Origin: a virus
Taxonomy: Duplodnaviria > Caudoviricetes
IMG/VR virus record: IMGVR_UViG_3300021255_000040
Location: 59,181 to 123,180 of that record
DNA length: 64,000 nt
Strand: one strand, 5' to 3'
Shown: positions 5,693 through 60,100 of the stretch, in pieces
Layout of the letters: the number at the start of each line of letters is the position of its first letter
Numbering within the stretch: position 1 is the stretch's first letter
Translations under genes and position numbers: made by a program
Notes under the pieces: model-generated
The model's input: only the letters and a program-made list of their open reading frames with translations
The model's database searches: none
What the model was told of the DNA's origin: nothing

Positions 5693-5986
5693 ATGGAAAG
5701 AAAAGAACTTTATGCAAAGATTCAGCAGCTGGGTCTTCAAGAAGAGGTGAAGAACACCTATGGTAAGAACTACACAATGGTAAGTAATGACAATCTGGAG
5801 CGCATCATCTGGAAGTATGATGCTACTCTGGCTAGTAAAGACCCTGATGCTCCTGTAACAGAGGAAACCACTAAGCCCCAGACTGAAACCACTCAGACAG
5901 AGAATGCTTATGAGGCAGCTTGCTTGGTATTCCTTGGAATCTTGAAGGATTCAGGAAAGCTGAATGACCTGTTAGCCAAGCTCTAA
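5693..5986 (+). CDS. Hypothetical protein
   Basis: Clean ORF followed by a terminator. Confidence 0.65.
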   Translation: MERKELYAKIQQLGLQEEVKNTYGKNYTMVSNDNLERIIWKYDATLASKDPDAPVTEETTKPQTETTQTENAYEAACLVFLGILKDSGKLNDLLAKL

Positions 5987-6011
5987 GTGATAGGGCTATT
6001 TTGTTTAGTAT

Positions 6012-6044
6012 GGGGAGGAGAAAATAGTAACCCCTCCCCTTTTT
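6012..6044 (+). terminator. Intrinsic terminator
   Basis: ggggagg...cctcccc followed by a T-tract. Confidence 0.75.
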
Positions 6045-6065
6045 AACTTTTAACTCACGTTAGAA

Positions 6066-8303
6066 ATGATAATTAACAGAAATGAAAGTGAAGTTACCGT
6101 CTTAGGTGAAGTACAAAAGCATAAGGTAGGCATTGACGAAAGAAACATTAATCATATTGTAACCATTCTGTCCTCTAATCTCTACTCTCATCCAATGCAG
6201 TCTTTTCTGCGTGAGATTGTCAGTAATGCTATAGACTCTCATATTGAGGCTGGAGTCAATGAGCCTGTCATCATTACTATTACTGACAATGATTTGTCCA
6301 TTAGGGATTTTGGTACTGGCATTTCTCCAGAAAGATTTGAAGAGATATTCTTAAACATAGGTAGTAGTACTAAAAGAGACAGTAATGATTATATAGGAAC
6401 CTTCGGTATCGGCAGGTTTGCTTCACTTGCAGTAGCAGATATAGTTAACATTACCTCATTTTATGATGGTAAGGCCTACTACTATGTGATGAACAAAGAC
6501 ATAGACCAGCTGCATATTGACCTGATACTGGAGAAAGATACTGATGAGCACAATGGTGTAGAAGTGAAGATTCCATTCAAAGCTTCTTTGCAGGATGAAG
6601 ACTGGAAAGCTCTTGCCTTTATCAAGAACCTCTATATTGAGGATAAGAGGAAGTATCCTAATACAGACCAAGGCAGCATCATCTTCTCATTCAATAAGAG
6701 GAAAGTCTATACCTACAAGACCTTCAAAGTACTGGAGATTGGTTATCCTTATAGCACTAAAGACAGATATACTGAAGTGTTGGTAGGCAATATCCCTTAT
6801 AGAGTGGACTATAGTTCCCTGTGGGAGGAAGATAGATATGACAACTGGGAAGATGCATTCAAGAAAGTATGCCCTTGTCTGAATATTGGTGAAGTGGATA
6901 TTACTCCCAACAGAGAGGGATTGCTCTATTCTGAACGTACCAAGAAGGCTTTGTGTAATGCTTATAATGAAGCTATTGATGAACTAACTACACTCTGGGA
7001 AGTATCATGCAATGAAGAATGCACTGACTTTAGGCAGTTTGCCCATGCCATTAAGAACCACTATGACAATGAACTGAAACTGGAAGGTGGTATCAGGGTT
7101 GATGTAGATAATGACCTGTCCTATATAGTCAAGATGAAGGATTTTCCTAAGTATAACTTCAAGGAACTGAAAGATATTATCCGCACTCTGCTTTATTCCA
7201 GCACAGATTATGTTATAACTTGCTTGGATCATAATGAAATGCAGAAAGGCAGAAGACTACTTGAGCAAAGTATTGAAAGAATAATGGACAAGTGTGATGA
7301 TGCTTATACTGCCATGATTGCTATGCCTGCATCTTATGGTATCAGCAGCAAGTATCTCAAGGGTTTCCTCAGTGAGCAGTTTCCTAATCAAAGGGTAATG
7401 CTACTCCGAGAGCCTCATATCTCTTTAGGCAGAGTCAGAAGTTTTATCCGTCAGAAATATGGTATTACCACTCTGACTGATTCCAAGAAGATGCATCTCA
7501 TCATAGCTTGTCTGAAGCACCTGATGAAGTATTTCAGTCAGCACATTCGCAGATGGGATATTATTAACTCTCCAGAGTATCTTCAGTATAAGGAGGACAA
7601 TAAGGAAGAGAAGGTGTATGTTCGTAACAACACTAAAGTGCCTTGTCACATCTGGTATCCTTCTGATACTTCCCCTGAGACTGAGACTGATACACCTAAT
7701 AACCTGATAAGAAGTCTTCACAACAGATACAAAAAGGCAAGAATAGTCTATGCACAGCTTGATAGTCCTTTTATTTATGGCTTCAAGGGTATTAACTACC
7801 CTAACCTTATTATTATAGGTCTGGCTCAGAACAACTATCAGTTGGCTGAAAAGGGAATGTTTCCTGACTATGTAAGACCTATTGAGGAGCTGTATTCTCC
7901 TGACAACAGGACTCTTCAGAGAATAGCTGCTATGGAGTATGTTCGTAATAAGGTACTTGTTACTAGTTTGAGCATGGCTTTCCCTAAACCGTTAAGAGAA
8001 ATAGCTGATAAGCTCAGTAAGTATCAAGACAAGTATCCCCATATTGGTCGCCATGATTATAGATATGATGGAGCCTACAATATTCTGAGAGTAGTTCCTG
8101 AGGAGAAATATGACAAAGAGATTATAGCCCTCTATCATCAGTTGGAAAAACCTTATGAGGTACAGCGTAAGATAAGTAACCACTATGGCAGTAAAAGTGA
8201 TTTCTTCTGGTATTTTCTGATGAAGGCTAAGAAGTTCAGACTGGACTATGACTATTATAAATGTATTAGAGACGACATTGACAAAATAACAAATCTATTA
8301 TGA
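6066..8303 (+). CDS. rIIA-like protein with N-terminal GHKL (HSP90-like) ATPase
   Basis: REIVSNAIDS, IRDFGTGI, GTFGIGR, NGVEV and DITPNREGL; ATGA-coupled to the rIIB-like gene. Confidence 0.85.
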   Translation: MIINRNESEVTVLGEVQKHKVGIDERNINHIVTILSSNLYSHPMQSFLREIVSNAIDSHIEAGVNEPVIITITDNDLSIRDFGTGISPERFEEIFLNIGSSTKRDSNDYIGTFGIGRFASLAVADIVNITSFYDGKAYYYVMNKDIDQLHIDLILEKDTDEHNGVEVKIPFKASLQDEDWKALAFIKNLYIEDKRKYPNTDQGSIIFSFNKRKVYTYKTFKVLEIGYPYSTKDRYTEVLVGNIPYRVDYSSLWEEDRYDNWEDAFKKVCPCLNIGEVDITPNREGLLYSERTKKALCNAYNEAIDELTTLWEVSCNEECTDFRQFAHAIKNHYDNELKLEGGIRVDVDNDLSYIVKMKDFPKYNFKELKDIIRTLLYSSTDYVITCLDHNEMQKGRRLLEQSIERIMDKCDDAYTAMIAMPASYGISSKYLKGFLSEQFPNQRVMLLREPHISLGRVRSFIRQKYGITTLTDSKKMHLIIACLKHLMKYFSQHIRRWDIINSPEYLQYKEDNKEEKVYVRNNTKVPCHIWYPSDTSPETETDTPNNLIRSLHNRYKKARIVYAQLDSPFIYGFKGINYPNLIIIGLAQNNYQLAEKGMFPDYVRPIEELYSPDNRTLQRIAAMEYVRNKVLVTSLSMAFPKPLREIADKLSKYQDKYPHIGRHDYRYDGAYNILRVVPEEKYDKEIIALYHQLEKPYEVQRKISNHYGSKSDFFWYFLMKAKKFRLDYDYYKCIRDDIDKITNLL

Positions 8304-8954
8304 GAATTGTAAGAGTAAACAATAGCTTAACGGCTATATTGTCTGATGGCAGAATCATTCAGACAAACAATTGCACTGATGAAATCTTTGAGCAGGTGAA
8401 GAAGTTCAAGGAAGATAATAATGAATTTGAACTGATTAACCTGCTGATTCCTGAGATTGATGAGGATGATGCAGAGGAGAATGAGCAGAAGAAGTTCCGT
8501 ACATTCTTTATTCAGACCGCTAAGAAAGCTGAAACCTCTGCTATCCTTGAGGTAAAGACTGATGACAATGGTGTTCAGGCTATGTACTGGAACTCAGTAT
8601 CTCCATTATCCTTGCCTCCTGAACTGGCAGAGAGAATCCTTAAGGCTGAGAAGGATGGTGATGAGAACCTGCTGGATACCTATAAGAATTTCTGGACTCT
8701 CACTTCACTAAATCCTCGTCCAGAGGTCAGGAGAAATCTGTTCAGGTTCCTGTCTAAGTGGGGCATGGTTATCTCCAAGTCTGGCTTGTTTGTAGGTTAT
8801 AGAAATGTAGAGGTGAAGGAAGAGGGTAAAACCCCAGAGACCACTATCTTTACTGATTCTCACAGTCACTCCACAACTATCCGTATTGGTCATGTAACCT
8901 CATTACCCATTGAAGAGTGCGACCTTGATAATGACAGAGAATGTAGTAGAGGGT
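8300..8954 (+). CDS. rIIB-like protein, exon 1
   Basis: NFW...NP...LFRFL...GLFVGYR...CDLDNDRECSRG(L); the expected GLH motif continues at 10099. Confidence 0.85.
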
Positions 8955-9060
8955 TAACATGTAGCCCACTTAGGAAGTAATTCCTTTGGAAAATAACGGG
9001 TAAAATCGGTGAAGCTATTTAACATTTACTTTAGAAATATTTAGGACATTAATTAGGTGG

Positions 9061-9113
9061 TTGCTCTATTGGAGCAATTTCTGTACCTTTACAACAACAA
9101 AAGATTGTAAAGG
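9061..9113 (+). promoter_or_regulatory. Intron-internal promoter (TTG-N20-TACCTTTA) and hairpin over the translation initiation region
   Basis: Perfect 9-bp stem cctttacaa(9086-9094)/ttgtaaagg(9105-9113) directly before the ATG at 9114. Confidence 0.6.
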
Positions 9114-9944
9114 ATGAAATTCACAAAAGAGCAATTAGAAAAGATTTATTTAGAAGAGTGCGTAAACAACAAAATGCGCTACTCTGAAGTTAAAAAGAAG
9201 TATGATATTCCAAGAGGTACTTGGGACTATTGGATCAGGAAAAGAGGAGGCAAAAAGGCAGACCTTAGAAGGCACAGGCCAAATGATGACTTCTTTAATT
9301 CCATTGATTCAGAAGTAAAGGCTTACCTACTTGGATATTTGTATGCTGATGGGTATTTAGCATCTGATGGTAGAATTGGGATTAGATTGCAGGAAGATGA
9401 TGTAGAAATAATAGAAATGATACAGAAATATATCTGTCCTAATAGTCCTGTTGAATCTTCAAATAATCAAAATTTCAAAAGAAAACCACAGCATTCTATT
9501 AGATGGAAATCTCCAATAATGTATAAAAGACTGCAAGAATTAGGGTTTTGCATAGATAAAACTCATACAGATTCTAATATTTTTCAGCTAATCCCTGAAG
9601 AATTGAAAAGGCATTTTCTTAGAGGATATACTGATGGAGATGGTCATATACAATCCTATAGACTAGATAATAGCACTTATAGAAAGATTAGTATAGTTTG
9701 GGCTAATGGAAGTTCTCAGATACTGACAGATATTCAAAATTGGCTACCTCAATACCATTGGCATCTATATAACAATGAAACTTTTTATGTTTTAGGATGC
9801 TATACACAGCATGATGTATACAGAGTAATAGAACTGCTTTACAAAGATGCAAACTTCTTTTTAACTAGAAAAATGAATCAAGCTAATAAAATATTTGATT
9901 TCTTTAGTAATAGTAATACCGAGCTAACTCAACAGATTGCGTAA
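9114..9944 (+). CDS. Intron-encoded double-motif LAGLIDADG homing endonuclease
   Basis: AYLLGYLYADG and HFLRGYTDGDG; N-terminal HTH-like region; the 3' end overlaps the intron core. Confidence 0.9.
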   Translation: MKFTKEQLEKIYLEECVNNKMRYSEVKKKYDIPRGTWDYWIRKRGGKKADLRRHRPNDDFFNSIDSEVKAYLLGYLYADGYLASDGRIGIRLQEDDVEIIEMIQKYICPNSPVESSNNQNFKRKPQHSIRWKSPIMYKRLQELGFCIDKTHTDSNIFQLIPEELKRHFLRGYTDGDGHIQSYRLDNSTYRKISIVWANGSSQILTDIQNWLPQYHWHLYNNETFYVLGCYTQHDVYRVIELLYKDANFFLTRKMNQANKIFDFFSNSNTELTQQIA

Positions 9945-10098
9945 GGCTGTTGGGTAGTGTAACGCATAGGTGGTGAATAAATATAATCCACCCACGAGTA
10001 TCCGTCTCCTTATGGGAGCAAAATATATGCTGAACTGCAAGAAGAGTTAAAGTACTTGCAGAACTACAGGATAAAAAGCCTGTAGGATAACAAAATTG

Positions 10099-10193
10099 TA
10101 CACATCGGAGGTACTTCATGGCTCCGCTATAACTATTTTGGTGATACAGGTCTTGTATGTCTGGTCAATCCAATGGATGTAGTTGCTGTGCCT
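10099..10193 (+). CDS. rIIB-like protein, exon 2 (95 nt)
   Basis: Encodes (L)HIGGTSWLRYNYFGDTGLVCLVNPMDVVAVP, matching the rIIB GLH...VNP.DVV.VP motif; absent from the ORF track. Confidence 0.9.
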
Positions 10194-10270
10194 TAATATA
10201 CCAGGGCCACATAGTAGAAATATTATGTGATAACGGGCAAAAACGGTGAAAGTTAAACTTTACAAAATAC

Positions 10271-10319
10271 TTGTCTATTTCATTGAAAATTACTATCTTT
10301 GTAATTGAAATGAAGATAG
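10271..10319 (+). promoter_or_regulatory. Intron-internal promoter (TTG-N20-TATCTTTG) and hairpin covering the GIY-YIG start codon
   Basis: -7 box at 10294-10301; stems ttcatt/aatgaa and aattac/gtaatt cover the ATG at 10310. Confidence 0.65.
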
Positions 10320-11233
10320 AGAAATATACAAATGAAATAAATCTTGCAGATATTGGAGTATACATTATTACTCATAACAACACTCCAACTGTCTATGTAG
10401 GCTCTACCTGCTGTAAAGGTGGTTTTGCTGAAAGATGGAGACACCATATTTTGTATTTAGAAAGAGGGAAAAATAATCCTGTACTAACAAATATATGCAA
10501 GAAATATGGAATTGAAGGTTTTAGATTCTCCATTTTAGAGAGAATGAATGGTTGTACACAAGAAGAAATAAGAAAAAGAGAAAGGTATTATATTGAGAAA
10601 TATGATAGTTATACTCATGGAGCAAATTGTAGTTTAAGCACAGATTGTTCCTTTAGAGTGCAGAAACATTTTCCTAATACTCCTGAAAAGTGTCAAAAAT
10701 ATAAAGATACTTGTACAACCAAGAAACCAATGTATGTTTATAATGGAAAAGGCGAGTTAATATATACTTTTGAATCAAGTGTTGAAGCTGATAGATTCTT
10801 CGGACTCAAAAAAGGTTCTTGTGGAGATAAAGCCAGAGAGGGATGGTCTCTTAATGGCAAGTACTGGTTTAGTCGTACTAAGAAAGACTGGATACCAGAA
10901 CAATTGAGACAAGAACGTATAAAACAAGGTCAAGAAAGAGCAGCTAAAACTCGTAGAGAGAATGGCAGCTATGATAATAGGCCTATTAGAAGCGGTTTTC
11001 ATGTATCTGAAAAAGCTAAGATTAAAGCAAGAGTATCTAATAAAATAAGTATGAAAGTTGACTTATATAACTTAGATGGATCTTTCTATAAATCCTTTGA
11101 ATCCCTTAATGAGTGTGATGATTTTCTTGGTTTAACGAGAGGAGCTACATCTAAAGTACTCAAAAATAAAGCAAAAACACTAAAAAGAAAGTATATACCA
11201 GTAAAGCATACTAATACCGTGCTAACTGATTAG
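10310..11233 (+). CDS. Intron-encoded GIY-YIG homing endonuclease with NUMOD1-like repeats
   Basis: GVYII..VYVGS, RW..H, RERYYI..N; start moved to the ATG at 10310, downstream of the promoter. Confidence 0.9.
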   Translation: MKIEKYTNEINLADIGVYIITHNNTPTVYVGSTCCKGGFAERWRHHILYLERGKNNPVLTNICKKYGIEGFRFSILERMNGCTQEEIRKRERYYIEKYDSYTHGANCSLSTDCSFRVQKHFPNTPEKCQKYKDTCTTKKPMYVYNGKGELIYTFESSVEADRFFGLKKGSCGDKAREGWSLNGKYWFSRTKKDWIPEQLRQERIKQGQERAAKTRRENGSYDNRPIRSGFHVSEKAKIKARVSNKISMKVDLYNLDGSFYKSFESLNECDDFLGLTRGATSKVLKNKAKTLKRKYIPVKHTNTVLTD

Positions 11234-11402
11234 ATTGCGTAAGGCTAATCAGTAGTGTAGAGCGTAGGTGGTGAATAAATATAATCCACCCAAGAGTGTC
11301 CGCTTCTGACTGCTACAATTGTAGTAAAAGAAGAAAATGTACGCCGAACTACAGGGAAACTTGTAGAACATAGGGATAAAAAGCCCTATGGATAACAATT
11401 TG

Positions 11403-11678
11403 TGGCATAATGCAGAGTATGGTAAGATTCGCACTTGTGCCTATCTTCCTATTGGTACTGCCCAGTATAATGACAATGGCTACATTATTCCATATACAGA
11501 CCAAGATGGCTTTGACTCCAAGTATGTCAAGCAGATTCTCTATGATGGAGTGATGAATCCTGAGGATAATCCTGAGTACAGTGTGCAGATTGATGTTAGA
11601 ACTACTGGCCAGACCTACAAGTCAGTTTCTGATAAGCTCCTTGAAGTGGCAAGGAAGTTTATCAAGGAACAAAGATGA
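11403..11678 (+). CDS. rIIB-like protein, exon 3
   Basis: WHNAEYGKIRTCAY matches the rIIB K.R.C.Y motif. Spliced CDS is 655+95+276 = 1026 nt (341 aa). Confidence 0.85.
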   Translation, partial: WHNAEYGKIRTCAYLPIGTAQYNDNGYIIPYTDQDGFDSKYVKQILYDGVMNPEDNPEYSVQIDVRTTGQTYKSVSDKLLEVARKFIKEQR

Positions 11679-12346
11679 CCATACAAGAGTATTTTGGTGA
11701 CTGGTCTAAAGTGGTAGACCTACAGGAGGCTGATAGGATTATTAAGAAACTGTCAGCCTCTAATCATATCATCTGCCCTCAACTCAAAGACATCTTCAAA
11801 TGTTTCAGGCTCTGCTCTCTCAGTAATCTAAGAGTGGTACTAATCGGACAGGATCCTTATCCTCAGAAAGGAGTGGCTACAGGTCTTGCCTTTGCCAATA
11901 GCCCAGACACTCCAGAAAATTCATATTCTCCTTCCTTGGAAATCCTTAGGGAATCTGTAATCAACTACACTATCCCACATAGAAGAGTTACTTTTGCTCC
12001 AGATTTGGAGAAGTGGGAAGCACAGGGGGTGCTGCTGTTAAACTCAGCACTTTCCTGTGAAGTAGGAAGAGTAGGAAGCCATACATTACTGTGGAGACCT
12101 TTCATCAAGTCCTTACTCACTAATCTCTCAAAGTACCATACAGGGCTGGTTTATCTGCTCATGGGAACTCAGGCTCAAAGTCTGGAACCCTATATCAACA
12201 AGCAGTTCAATCATGTGATTCATATCAGACATCCCTCATGGTATGCACGTCAGAGGCAGAGAATGCCTTCTGACATCTGGCAAGAGATTAACACCATTCT
12301 CATAGGTCAAAATGGCTATGGTATAGAATGGTTCACAGAGTATTAA
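11675..12346 (+). CDS. ung: Uracil-DNA glycosylase (family 1)
   Basis: GQDPY, GLAF, QGVLLLN and HPS motifs. Confidence 0.92.
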   Translation: MTIQEYFGDWSKVVDLQEADRIIKKLSASNHIICPQLKDIFKCFRLCSLSNLRVVLIGQDPYPQKGVATGLAFANSPDTPENSYSPSLEILRESVINYTIPHRRVTFAPDLEKWEAQGVLLLNSALSCEVGRVGSHTLLWRPFIKSLLTNLSKYHTGLVYLLMGTQAQSLEPYINKQFNHVIHIRHPSWYARQRQRMPSDIWQEINTILIGQNGYGIEWFTEY

Positions 12347-12365
12347 CAAATAAAACAAGAACAAG

Positions 12366-12728
12366 ATGAAAAAGTATTTTGTAGTTGAAACTGATGAAAT
12401 TTGTGAGTTTGGTGATGCATTACACCTTACTATGTTCAAAGAACTTGAGGATGGAAAGGTCACTGTAGAGAAGGATGTAGAGTTCTCTGAGGACACTATG
12501 GACTGGATGATTGAGATGGGCTTTGTAGAAGAGCGTGAAGTTGAGGAAAATGACCTGATTGACTTTGGCAATGAGGAACCTTGTGAGGCATTAGCTGCTC
12601 TGGAAGAAGATTTTGAGGCTCTTGAACAGAGAATTGATGCTATGGAAGTCATGATTAAAGAAATCTATGACCTCATCAAGCCATCTGTTAAGGAAGAGAA
12701 GAAGAATGCTCAACCAAAGAAGAAATGA
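12366..12728 (+). CDS. Acidic hypothetical protein
   Basis: Clean ORF, ATGA-coupled to the next gene. Confidence 0.65.
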   Translation: MKKYFVVETDEICEFGDALHLTMFKELEDGKVTVEKDVEFSEDTMDWMIEMGFVEEREVEENDLIDFGNEEPCEALAALEEDFEALEQRIDAMEVMIKEIYDLIKPSVKEEKKNAQPKKK

Positions 12729-57100: not shown

Positions 57101-60100
57101 CATCAATGACCTTCTCCAGATTAGTCATAATGTCATCCCTGTTATTAGCATTCTCTACGACCTGCTCAACATTCCTCATGACATTATCCTTCCACTGCTG
57201 ACTTTCCTCTGCATTATCAATTACAGCCTTGACATCAGCAACAGTATTACCCCATTCCTTAGCATCTTGCACTTGTTGCTGATACTGAGGCAACATACTA
57301 TCATTCTCTATAATATCTAATAAGGTGGGACTCATCTTCCTCAAAGCCCTGAAGACAAACTCATTCTTCTGGTCTTGACTGACATCATCATGTCCCTTCA
57401 TACCTTCCTCAAACTGATTAATGAAATCTGCCACAGTCTCAGCATTCCTTTGGTTAATCAGCTTATAGGCAGTATCAGCTTCCTGTGCTCTCTGTGCTTC
57501 CAATGCTACAGCAGCAGCCTCAGGATTCTGCGCCATTCTGCTATAAGCATCCTCATTAGCTGCAATCCTCTGTGACAGTCTAGCAATATCCTGTATCTTA
57601 CTCAGAGCATCACCATCTCTCATCAATAGTCTCTGTTCCAACTTAGAGATTTCCCTTTGTTGTGCATCACTGTAGAGTTGCCTGTTCTCAGGATTCAACA
57701 TCCTAGCTCTTGTCACAGGGTCAAGACCAAATATCTCATCAGCAGTCAATACCTTTTCCTGATACTTACCACTCTCATCTTGAGCCTGATTGTTCAGAGC
57801 CTCAATGACTTTATTCTTCTTCTCAGTAGTCCTAGTACCAAGGTCTCTCAGATAAGCCTCCTGCTGAACAGCATCATCGTATTTAGCCTGAGCTTCTTCC
57901 TGAGCTTTCTGAGTATTGTATTTCTCCTCACTGGTCTTAGCAGCTTTCCTATTGGCAACCGCTTCATCCAGTTTATCCTTCAAGTCCTGAGTCTTTTGCT
58001 TCTGCTCTTCCAGCTCTTTCTGAAGTTCATCCTGTTGCTTATCATATACCTTAATAAGAGCTTCAGCACTCTTCCTGCCACCAACAGAAGGAATTAGATT
58101 CTCCTGACTAACATCACCTGTAATGTCAGCAGTATCATCCAGCTCATCCTGCATCTTCTGCACTCTTTCTCTCCAATGAGGATTCAGAGCCTGATTCATC
58201 TTCATCTTAGCCCTTACAGCAGGATCAATTCTCTTGCCAAGGTTTCTTTCTATCTTCTGAACTTCCTGCTCTGCCTTGTCATAAGCCTCTGAAGCCTCTT
58301 GCAGTTTCTGGGCATTCTGACTAATCTGATAAAGAGCCAACTGGTTATTAGCCTCACTTTGCACTACACCAGGATTATTGGCATAATACTGAGCCAGCAT
58401 ATTATTAACCTCCTCCTCGGTGAAAGCATTTTCACCTTCCATCTGCATATTAGCAGCTTTGGCAATAAAGTCCTTAGTATTCTGAATCACACTACTCAGA
58501 GTTGTGGGGTCATTCTGATTCTGTGCCAGCTGGTTTAAGGCATTTACTGCATTAATAGCCTTCACAAACCTCATGGTCTTCTGTTCTCCCACAGTCTCTG
58601 CATTATCCAGAGCAATATCAGAAGTCACCAAGTCCTCAATTACCTTGAAATCATCATAGTCATCCAACAGGTTATTCACATAGTCTGCATGATTCTGAAG
58701 GTCTCTTTCATTCTGCTTAGCTCCATAGTAAGTATTCAGCACACCATTCTGAATGAAATAGTTAAACCTGTCTCTCCAGTTCTCTCTCAGACTGACATCC
58801 TCATACTGAACATTACCCTGTTCATCCCTCATCACACTGCCATCTTCATTTCTCTTGGCTCTTTGCTGGAAGTTATTCTTGTAAGCCTGTCTGCCTTCCT
58901 TGGTAAAGTAGTGAACAATGTTGGTCATATTGGGAGTAAAGCTCAAGATACTACCTAAACCACCAACAGTAGCAGCATTCCAAGTAGTCTCCTGACCCAA
59001 AGAGTTATTCAGACCTTTCCAATAAGAGTACAGACCATCAGCAAAACCATAGGTATCTGCCATAGACTCTCCATTCTCAAAGGCATTAAGGTATCTGTCA
59101 AAGCTGTCAGCATTGATTCTCTCAGCAGCATCCACCATCATATCATCAGTGCCATTAGTCCAAGCACCTCCCCATATCTGGCTACCTGCTATCTTACCCA
59201 TCTGCTTCCACTTCTGTCCATTGGTTAGGAACTTACTTGTCTCAGTAGCCAATCTCTGCCTACCTGCTGGAGTAGTAACTTCTCTCAGTCCCTGTAATCC
59301 TGCTGCTACTTTATTCTTCAAACCAGTAGGGTTAGTATAGAACCATTTCCTGAAACCGACAGTATTCACCAATCCATACTTAATAGCCTCAGGTAAGAAA
59401 GTCATTGTAGCAGTCTCCCCTGCTGAATTGATAGCTTCATTCTGCAATGCTGCATACTCATCAGAACCCTTCAAGTCAGTCAGTTTCTTCTGAACCATTT
59501 CACCCAGTACAGCTTGCTGTGCTCTAGCTCTCAGCATCTCATCCAGTTTAGCTTCATCAACCAACTGTCCCTGCTCACCCATCTGAGCCATATACTCAGC
59601 CTTCATACTTGCAGCTCTGGCATCAATCAAAGCATCTACTTGAGCCTTATATTGCTCATCATTCTGATACTGGTCATAGATTTCCTGTTTACTCCTATTA
59701 AGAGCTGTCTCTTCAGCATTGGCTAAGTTCTGAGCCAGTGTTTCTTGGAAGGCTCCACGCTCATAAGCATAAGCAATACCTCCTGCACCTGTCAGTCCTT
59801 GAATCAAAGAACCTGCACCTGTCTGAGCAGTAAGATGTCTGCCAGTCCAGTTCATTGCCTGACCAAGGCCTCTACCCAATCTGCCTACCTTACTGGCAGT
59901 ACTCAGTGTCTTACCAAGCAGTCCCATACCAAAGGGAAGCAACTGAGCAGCACCATCAGCCAGACCAAAGCTCATCATCTTGAAGGATTCATACATTAAG
60001 TCAGAATCATCATTGGGATTATAAGCTACCTTGTAAGGACTGCTTCCCAGTTTCTCATATTGCTTCTGCTCATCATTGTCCAGCGTACCAAACTGTTCTG

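Follow-up and report, generated by a model that had tools for sequence, protein, structure and literature searches.

A rIIB-like gene with two intervening sequences

The DNA analysed here (the window) is a stretch of 64,000 nucleotides (nt), positions 59,181 to 123,180 of the viral record IMGVR_UViG_3300021255_000040, which is a complete genome of 123,180 nt with terminal repeats. In all likelihood (probability about 0.92) it carries a rIIB-like gene of a crAss-like phage that two mobile group I introns, both from one widespread phage intron family, split at conserved codons lying 95 nt from each other. The evidence consists of the colinearity of the exons with uninterrupted homologues, the architecture and covariation of the ribozymes, the intact endonuclease genes within them, the presence or absence of an insert at both sites in related alleles, and the recent spread of intron 1. 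The features concerned are as follows.

8300..8954, plus strand: rIIB-like exon 1, 218 codons and 1 nt; phrog_609 RIIB 1.2e-10; 99% identity to residues 1-218 of the uninterrupted homologue P0002
8955..10098, plus strand: intron 1, group I, 1144 nt; 114.5 bits (E-value 1.4e-22) at 9920-10035 with the covariance model R1 described below
9114..9944, plus strand: LAGLIDADG endonuclease gene, 276 amino acids (aa), intact, in the P5 loop of intron 1; Pfam LAGLIDADG_3 33.9 bits; phrog_4645 2.3e-44
10099..10193, plus strand: rIIB-like exon 2, 95 nt, residues 219-250; 100% alignment with P0002 residues 220-250
10194..11402, plus strand: intron 2, group I, 1209 nt; R1 116.4 bits (E-value 5.3e-23) at 11218-11349
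10310..11233, plus strand: GIY-YIG endonuclease gene, 307 aa, intact, in the P5 loop of intron 2; GIY-YIG 29 bits; NUMOD1 27 bits
11403..11678, plus strand: rIIB-like exon 3, 91 codons and stop; 97% identity to the C-terminus of P0002

Exon 1 ends with T8954, the first base of a leucine codon, and its final four bases (GGGT) are the exon strand of helix P1; exon 2 runs from T10099 to T10193, and exon 3 from T11403 to a stop codon at 11676-11678, which overlaps the start of a downstream gene similar to uracil-DNA-glycosylase (UDG). The junctions proposed in the initial annotation (8954/10099 and 10193/11403, flanking a 95-nt exon) were exact on reading the bases. Joining the three exons gives 1026 nt, that is, 341 codons and a stop, and yields the contiguous protein that had been predicted, with both quoted peptides, CSRGLHIGG and VNPMDVVAVPWHNAEYGKIRTC, present.

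Colinearity of the 341-aa RIIB-like protein with uninterrupted homologues was confirmed at both junctions. A homologue search with exon 1 returned 62 clusters, among them P0002 (341 aa), which shares 99% identity with exon 1. Aligned to P0002 and to six more full-length homologues (identity to P0002 down to 46%), exons 1-3 abut without a gap, the sole unaligned residue at the junctions being the leucine of the split codon; the alignment that had been proposed as a check therefore shows 341-aa proteins crossing both junctions uninterrupted. At the DNA level, the intron-less alleles L119, L120 and L123 confirm the exact insertion points at both sites.

The rIIB-like label likewise proved sound, because P0002 matches five rIIB PHROGs (best 8.6e-23), for example over residues 104-267, which span positions 219 and 250/251; because the precomputed Pfam family PF26926 (Phage_T4_rIIB) is found on full-length homologues and not on open reading frames (ORFs) holding exon 1 only; because tblastn of P0002 against GenBank phages matched 615 records, nearly all of those among the matches listed being annotated rIIB; and because a rIIA-like gene adjoins. 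The best of these GenBank matches were the crAss-like IAS virus and cr116_1 (43%).

Automatic annotation does reduce the gene to fragments, as had been anticipated. The ORF list gives four plus-strand ORFs of 226 aa (8300-8980), 276 aa (9114-9944), 320 aa (10271-11233) and 96 aa (11388-11678), and beside the 226-aa exon-1 ORF 11 further clusters end just after a site. Of the 62 clusters, 46 continue across both sites, ten end just after site 1 and two exactly at site 2, and cluster P0057 is an eleventh ending just after the site-1 motif. Stumps from gene callers thus account for 12 of the 62 clusters and, because the gene is truncated in this way, rIIB is under-annotated in crAss-like phages of the rumen and gut.

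Both inserts carry a group I ribozyme core

The elements of the two ribozymes, all on the plus strand, were placed as follows.

Intron 1, 5′ part: P10 guide 8960-8963; P1 guide 8964-8967; P2 8972-8985; J3/4 9002-9005
Intron 1, core: P3 8997-9001/10000-10004; P4 9006-9011/9917-9922; P6 9928-9954; P7 9964-9968/10026-10030
Intron 1, 3′ hairpins: P7.1 9969-9992; P8 10006-10018; P9 10035-10061; P9.1 10064-10085; terminal G 10098
Intron 2, 5′ part: P10 guide 10201-10203; P1 guide 10204-10207; P2 10208-10229
Intron 2, core: P3 10234-10238/11298-11302; P4 10243-10248/11215-11220; P6 11226-11252; P7 11262-11266/11340-11344
Intron 2, 3′ hairpins: P7.1 11267-11290; P8 11303-11333; P9 11349-11366; P9.1 11369-11390; terminal G 11402

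The U.G pairs in P1, the P10 pairings and the terminal G of the initial annotation were all found in both introns. P1 places a U.G pair at the splice site by pairing GGGU (8951-8954) with GCCC (8964-8967) in intron 1 and GCCU with GGGC in intron 2. For P10, the intron 1 guide UGUA, just 5′ of GCCC, pairs with the UACA that opens exon 2, and in intron 2 CCA pairs with UGG. G10098 and G11402 are the only terminal positions that bring the exons back into the frame of the uninterrupted homologues. The P10 guide of site 2 varies along with the 3′ exon (CCA/UGG in the window, UAUA/UAUG in allele L002 and GAUG/UAUC in allele L125), which is good evidence that the pairing is used, and P2 covaries between the window and allele L122. 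P3 and P7 interlock in both introns, the hallmark topology of group I introns, and P2, P8, P9 and P9.1 are local hairpins. Extra helices P7.1 and P7.2 between P7 and P3′ are characteristic of subgroup IA; here P7.1 is a hairpin of 5 base pairs (bp) with an invariant 14-nt loop and strong covariation, and no second hairpin was identified in this position. Intron 2 opens with TAA, and translation into intron 1 would meet a stop after seven intron-only codons (eight with the split leucine codon).

Inteins and group II introns were considered as other identities for the inserts and rejected: in-frame stops lie just past both 5′ junctions and the endonuclease ORFs are in other frames, and neither a reverse transcriptase nor a domain V is present.

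Covariation was assessed in an alignment of 27 sequences, comprising the two window introns, the introns of L001, L002 and L125, and 20 ORF-less members of the family; family sequences were chosen by a sequence motif that does not impose the tested pairings. Thirty-seven pairs were tested, in P3, P4, P6, P7 (with a pair beyond the bulge), P7.1 and P9.1. Across these pairs 98.8% of cells were canonical and 27 of the 37 showed changes on both sides, a raw covariation count that is inflated by kinship, as against 30-42% paired when the 3′ partner was slid by 1-3 columns as a control. Window introns 1 and 2 each form 37 of the 37 pairs. The covariance model R1 was built from 53 other family members, none of them from rIIB loci, and its E-values are rough, having been obtained with a shortened calibration; on the whole 123,180-nt genome it made two matches only, the window introns. 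The group I identity first proposed is upheld by the pairings, the covariation and the R1 scores of 114-116 bits.

In their 3′ non-coding parts the two inserts are clearly alike, and they share a 33-nt core motif that occurs twice in the window and not once in 100 shuffles; the motif was also found in more than 112 IMG/VR contigs (L005-L116), many of these relatives being without an ORF in the corresponding place. Searches with blastn using the window core matched cr131_1 (just after TerL) and cr7_1 at 75-77% over 122 nt, Dulem virus 41 within a fragmented primase/polymerase gene, phages of Staphylococcus, Clostridium and C. difficile, and one Leptolyngbya phage. The data support the conclusion that the two inserts are group I introns belonging to a single, very widespread family of phage introns. 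It is at this family level that they can be called related, as they had been: identity between their 3′ cores is 68-74%, and each has a closer relative elsewhere in the family. Descent as sister introns by duplication within rIIB was rejected, the cores nearest to intron 2 being those of L033 (78%) and of the site-2 intron of L125 (76%), with intron 1 no closer (74%).

The intron core with its invariant loop UGAAUAAAUAUAAU is found in these more than 112 viral contigs and in 34 GenBank phages (of Bacteroidota, Firmicutes and cyanobacteria), where it is mostly unannotated. Some family members carry the endonuclease ORF in P8 and not in P5.

Two unrelated endonuclease genes in the same loop

Two unrelated endonuclease families occupy the same loop of this one ribozyme family. 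Matches were judged against Pfam cut-offs of 22.5 for LAGLIDADG_3 (PF14528), 22.6 for GIY-YIG (PF01541), 22.8 for NUMOD1 and 27 for the I-HmuI NUMOD-like domain; a match to the last of these in the GIY-YIG enzyme (19.8 bits) is under its cut-off. NUMOD1 and the I-HmuI-like part of this enzyme are modules of the DNA-binding type. The LAGLIDADG ORF has two motifs, LLGYLYADGYL (YADG) and FLRGYTDGDGHI (TDGDG), and its 3′ end spans P4′ and the 5′ strand of P6, with the stop codon in L6. In intron 2, the 3′ end of the GIY-YIG gene also spans P4′ and the 5′ strand of P6. The GIY-YIG enzyme is 47% identical, over its full length, to the enzyme of the L002 intron at the same site and, because this orthologous enzyme begins there, the start codon is most likely ATG 10310 and not the upstream TTG 10271 of the ORF list.

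A perfect 9-bp hairpin (CCUUUACAA/UUGUAAAGG) at 9085-9116 takes in an AAAGGA stretch and ends directly at the ATG with which the LAGLIDADG gene starts; L122 retains this hairpin, with one A-U pair changed to G.U. By analogy, this hairpin could hide the start site of the LAGLIDADG gene in the unspliced early transcript, as the start site of I-TevI of phage T4 is hidden by a hairpin in its early transcript. A scan of 5900-12500 for sigma-70 promoters and terminators gave the same counts as in shuffled sequence and is therefore uninformative on endonuclease expression.

Occupied and empty alleles

Related rIIB loci were compared for rIIB protein identity and for the state of each site.

L001: rIIB protein identity 81%; site 1 intron; site 2 empty
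L122: rIIB protein identity 78%; site 1 intron of the same family (contig ends inside); site 2 not covered
L002 and L004: rIIB protein identity 45%; site 1 empty; site 2 intron
L119, L120 and L123: rIIB protein identity 83-92%; site 1 empty; site 2 empty
L125: rIIB protein identity 43%; site 1 intron of 419 nt; site 2 intron of 333 nt

One small gene with two sites displays every stage in the life cycle of a homing endonuclease: empty site, recent invasion, long residence and, in L125, loss of the endonuclease. In the last of these (L125:3105-3951) the two introns flank the same 95-nt exon, both endonuclease genes are deleted, and intron 2 retains the first 11 codons of the GIY-YIG gene. The L125 pair is a natural minimal version of the arrangement, suited to splicing assays.

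Intron 1 of the window and its counterpart in L001 share 99.7% identity over 1144 nt, as against 77.2% for the exons, 67.5% for rIIA and 68.5% for the UDG-like gene. This discrepancy points to a recent horizontal transfer of intron 1. A 45-nt exon block at site 1 is 91% identical between the same two genomes, compared with ~80% elsewhere. Intron 2 and its L002 counterpart are 62% identical, with enzymes at the 47% given above and gene DNA at 57%; since intron and enzyme have diverged about as far as the gene, intron 2 looks like an old resident.

The window and the intron-less allele L119 are 97-100% identical except at positions 496-810 of the coding sequence, where identity falls to 62-88% around both sites. 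This diverged tract corresponds to 8795-8954, 10099-10193 and 11403-11462 of the window. The drop in identity fits co-conversion, although the intron-less P0002 has the window's amino acids in the tract, which is possibly a product of co-conversion or else an unrelated recombination patch. At site 1, intron-bearing alleles read GGGT then TACA across the insertion point and the intron-less L119 and L120 read GGTC then TGCA, while the empty site 2 keeps GCCT followed by TGG.

One codon past the intron 2 site the window has a histidine (CAT, 11406-11408), where every one of the aligned intron-less homologues has alanine or another residue (WAN/WAS/WES). This histidine could have come in with intron 2, or it could guard against that intron's own endonuclease. 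A distant rIIB homologue (36%) has a 204-nt in-frame insertion near residue 181 (L126:899-1102), in which the intron core motif is lacking.

Selection on the exons and alternative explanations

The rIIB exons are under purifying selection. The ratio of nonsynonymous to synonymous substitution (dN/dS) is 0.08 between the window and L001, 0.10 downstream of site 1, and 0.26 between L002 and L125, the range over the exons, including those downstream of introns, being 0.08-0.29. Among 46 full-length homologues, residues C215, S216, G218, L219 and H220 at site 1 and V249 and P250 at site 2 are at least 95% conserved. Both the conserved motifs and the selection described in the initial annotation are borne out by this conservation and by dN/dS; the argument that double invasion itself implies selection is not, as it is to a homing endonuclease's own advantage to settle on conserved sequence.

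A different history would have two free-standing endonuclease genes landing in rIIB, leaving a gene that is permanently split or dead, its pieces either translated separately or decaying and no RNA splicing taking place. Phage genes split by free-standing endonuclease genes are known (e.g. Aeh1 nrdA/mobE), gene callers return only fragments of the gene (P0001, 226 aa), and Rfam finds no intron in the window. However, the ~310 nt of non-coding sequence around each endonuclease gene is a covarying ribozyme core, exon 2 has no start codon until its last seven codons, and exons 2 and 3 are in register with uninterrupted homologues at a dN/dS of about 0.1-0.3. Moreover, L125 has lost both endonuclease genes and still retains both inserts, as introns would be expected to do but free-standing genes would not. 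We consider a permanently split gene very improbable.

Several points weigh against two functional introns. Splicing at both junctions is something we infer from the sequence only. The Rfam model Intron_gpI, at its gathering score and at E-values up to 10, left the window introns unmatched, their P5 being interrupted by ORFs of 830-920 nt; at E-values up to 1 it left the ORF-less L125 introns unmatched; and its threshold was reached by one of 24 family loci (20 searched at the gathering score, seven at E-values up to 10, three at both). Across the 20 family loci searched at the gathering score, Rfam reported transfer RNAs only. The GGTC then TGCA of L119 and L120 would not pair with the intron 1 guide, so that these alleles are perhaps not targeted in nature, or else exon flanks must be carried in by homing itself. 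Finally, much of the purifying selection measured between the window and L001 acted before intron 1, a recent arrival, was there.

The silence of Rfam on the window is not read as absence of introns, because the covariation is strong and because an ORF-less family member, L101:532-811, passes Intron_gpI (RF00028) with 50.7 bits (gathering score 50; E-value 2.3e-10; model positions 1-253). The Rfam alignment of L101 puts P3, P4-P5, P6, P7, P3′, P8, P7′ and P9 on the same blocks that were paired by hand, and handles the hairpin after P7 (P7.1) as an insertion. The search with group I models proposed as a check thus had a divided outcome: Rfam misses the window introns, but it accepts L101, and R1 scores the window introns at 114-116 bits. 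Reaching the Rfam threshold bears on detection and does not define a group I intron. The ribozyme family spans phages of Bacteroidota, Firmicutes and cyanobacteria, yet it is nearly invisible to the Rfam group I model, and a dedicated family model would reveal many unannotated introns.

It could also be that one insert only still splices, the other being a recent or degenerate ribozyme, and that the phage has no full-length RIIB. Selection has had little time to act on intron 1 in this genome, given its recent arrival (99.7% to L001). In addition, rIIA and rIIB are non-essential in T4 without RexAB, protection from RexAB-type exclusion being known for T4 only (PMC13716836). Such a half-functional pair is nevertheless highly unlikely, as both introns form all 37 core pairs and score like other members of the family, an identical intron 1 sits in the otherwise intact gene of L001, and this type of intron occupies site 1 in at least ten homologue clusters.

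Comparison with known phage introns

The td, nrdB and nrdD (sunY) introns of T4 are subgroup IA2 group I introns with the endonucleases I-TevI, I-TevII and I-TevIII. They resemble the window introns in that the endonuclease ORF forms a loop outside the ribozyme and overlaps core helices at its 3′ end, in an early in-frame stop past the 5′ splice site, and in an extra hairpin between P7 and P3′; the enzyme of intron 2 is, like I-TevI, of the GIY-YIG plus NUMOD type. The two systems differ in that the host gene here is rIIB and not a gene of nucleotide metabolism, the ORF lies in P5 and not in P6a, only one extra hairpin (P7.1) is visible, and two introns stand 95 nt from each other. Megablast and blastn searches against GenBank phages gave no match to T4 at the sequence level.

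Landthaler and Shub reportedly described, in PNAS in 1999, three group I introns in one gene, orf142 of Staphylococcus phage Twort. That gene likewise has several related group I introns separated by short exons, with a similar-looking 3′ layout of P7′, GAAC, a P9 hairpin, a P9.1 hairpin and a closing ...AAUUG, whereas its introns lack endonuclease ORFs and its host gene and phage lineage are others. Exon skipping is reported for Twort; as a designed isoform it was rejected here, since with exon 2 skipped exon 1 would be followed by Leu-Ala-stop and the P10 guide of intron 1 mismatches exon 3.

In crAss-like phages, group I introns with endonuclease genes have been reported in the MCP, PolB and primase genes, in ATP_43b and in the RNA polymerase region (PMC7886860). 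These concern the same phage group, the same kind of element and LAGLIDADG-type ORFs, and two published genomes, cr131_1 and cr7_1, carry the same intron core as the window; rII, however, is absent from the paper's text, whereas the host gene here is rIIB. The rIIB genes of the crAss-like IAS virus and cr116_1 in GenBank are uninterrupted, all 40 GenBank rIIB genes among the matches listed (615 records) are single unbroken pieces, and the literature searched reports no rIIB intron. What is new is rIIB as a host gene; the mechanism is ordinary and the selfish element of a well-known kind. Thus rIIB joins the list of phage genes that host introns, and the understanding of how such elements work is unchanged.

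A model of the RIIB protein

The AlphaFold model of P0002 (33 homologues) has a mean predicted local distance difference test score of 80.9. In this model exon 2 contributes to a beta-rich domain at the C-terminus, supplying three of its strands and one short helix, and the homing sites lie within the invariant CSxGLH strand and the NPxxVxAVP strand of that domain. A Foldseek-independent search gave weak structural matches of the C-terminal domain, mostly to proteins of the ADP-ribosyltransferase (ART) fold (Arr, Rhs ART toxins, Scabin, PARP domains, and the pertussis, diphtheria and cholix toxins). Comparing the RIIB model with the PDB by Foldseek returned nothing at E-values up to 0.001, a profile search of PDB sequences returned a chance-level ATPase match only, and the literature searched reports no ART-like RIIB fold. 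RIIB is not known to have been assigned a biochemical activity since the rII work on T4. That the functional centre of RIIB lies where the two homing sites are, and that RIIB would be a divergent ART-like protein binding NAD or nucleotides, is a speculative and rather unlikely proposal; if true, it would make the function of RIIB directly testable. A lesser variant, in which the intron pair would act as a splicing-dependent switch, is without support.

Gene context and proposed mechanism

The gene is flanked by two co-oriented genes, included as context.

6066..8303, plus strand: rIIA-like gene, 745 aa; phrog_612 RIIA 4.5e-62; Pfam HATPase_c_3 1.1e-10
11675..12346, plus strand: UDG-superfamily gene, downstream; Pfam UDG 7.6e-12

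The rIIA-like gene lies directly 5′ of rIIB, an order also found in L001 and L002. ATGA overlaps occur at 8300-8303 (rIIA/rIIB) and at 11675-11678 (rIIB/UDG-like). Translation of the three genes is probably coupled, and both introns must leave a polycistronic RNA.

In the mechanism we propose, the rIIA-rIIB-UDG transcript would fold into two ribozymes. Guanosine would attack just past the U that forms the U.G pair of P1, and ligation of the exons after the terminal G would follow with the help of P10, two transesterifications per intron restoring the 341-aa RIIB-like protein. In a mixed infection the endonuclease would presumably cut an intron-less allele, and repair would then copy the intron and some flanking exon into the cut allele.

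A megablast search of 8000-12000 against GenBank phages gave no match. Elsewhere the window encodes a primase, NrdD, a DNA polymerase and an ORF of 3728 codons.

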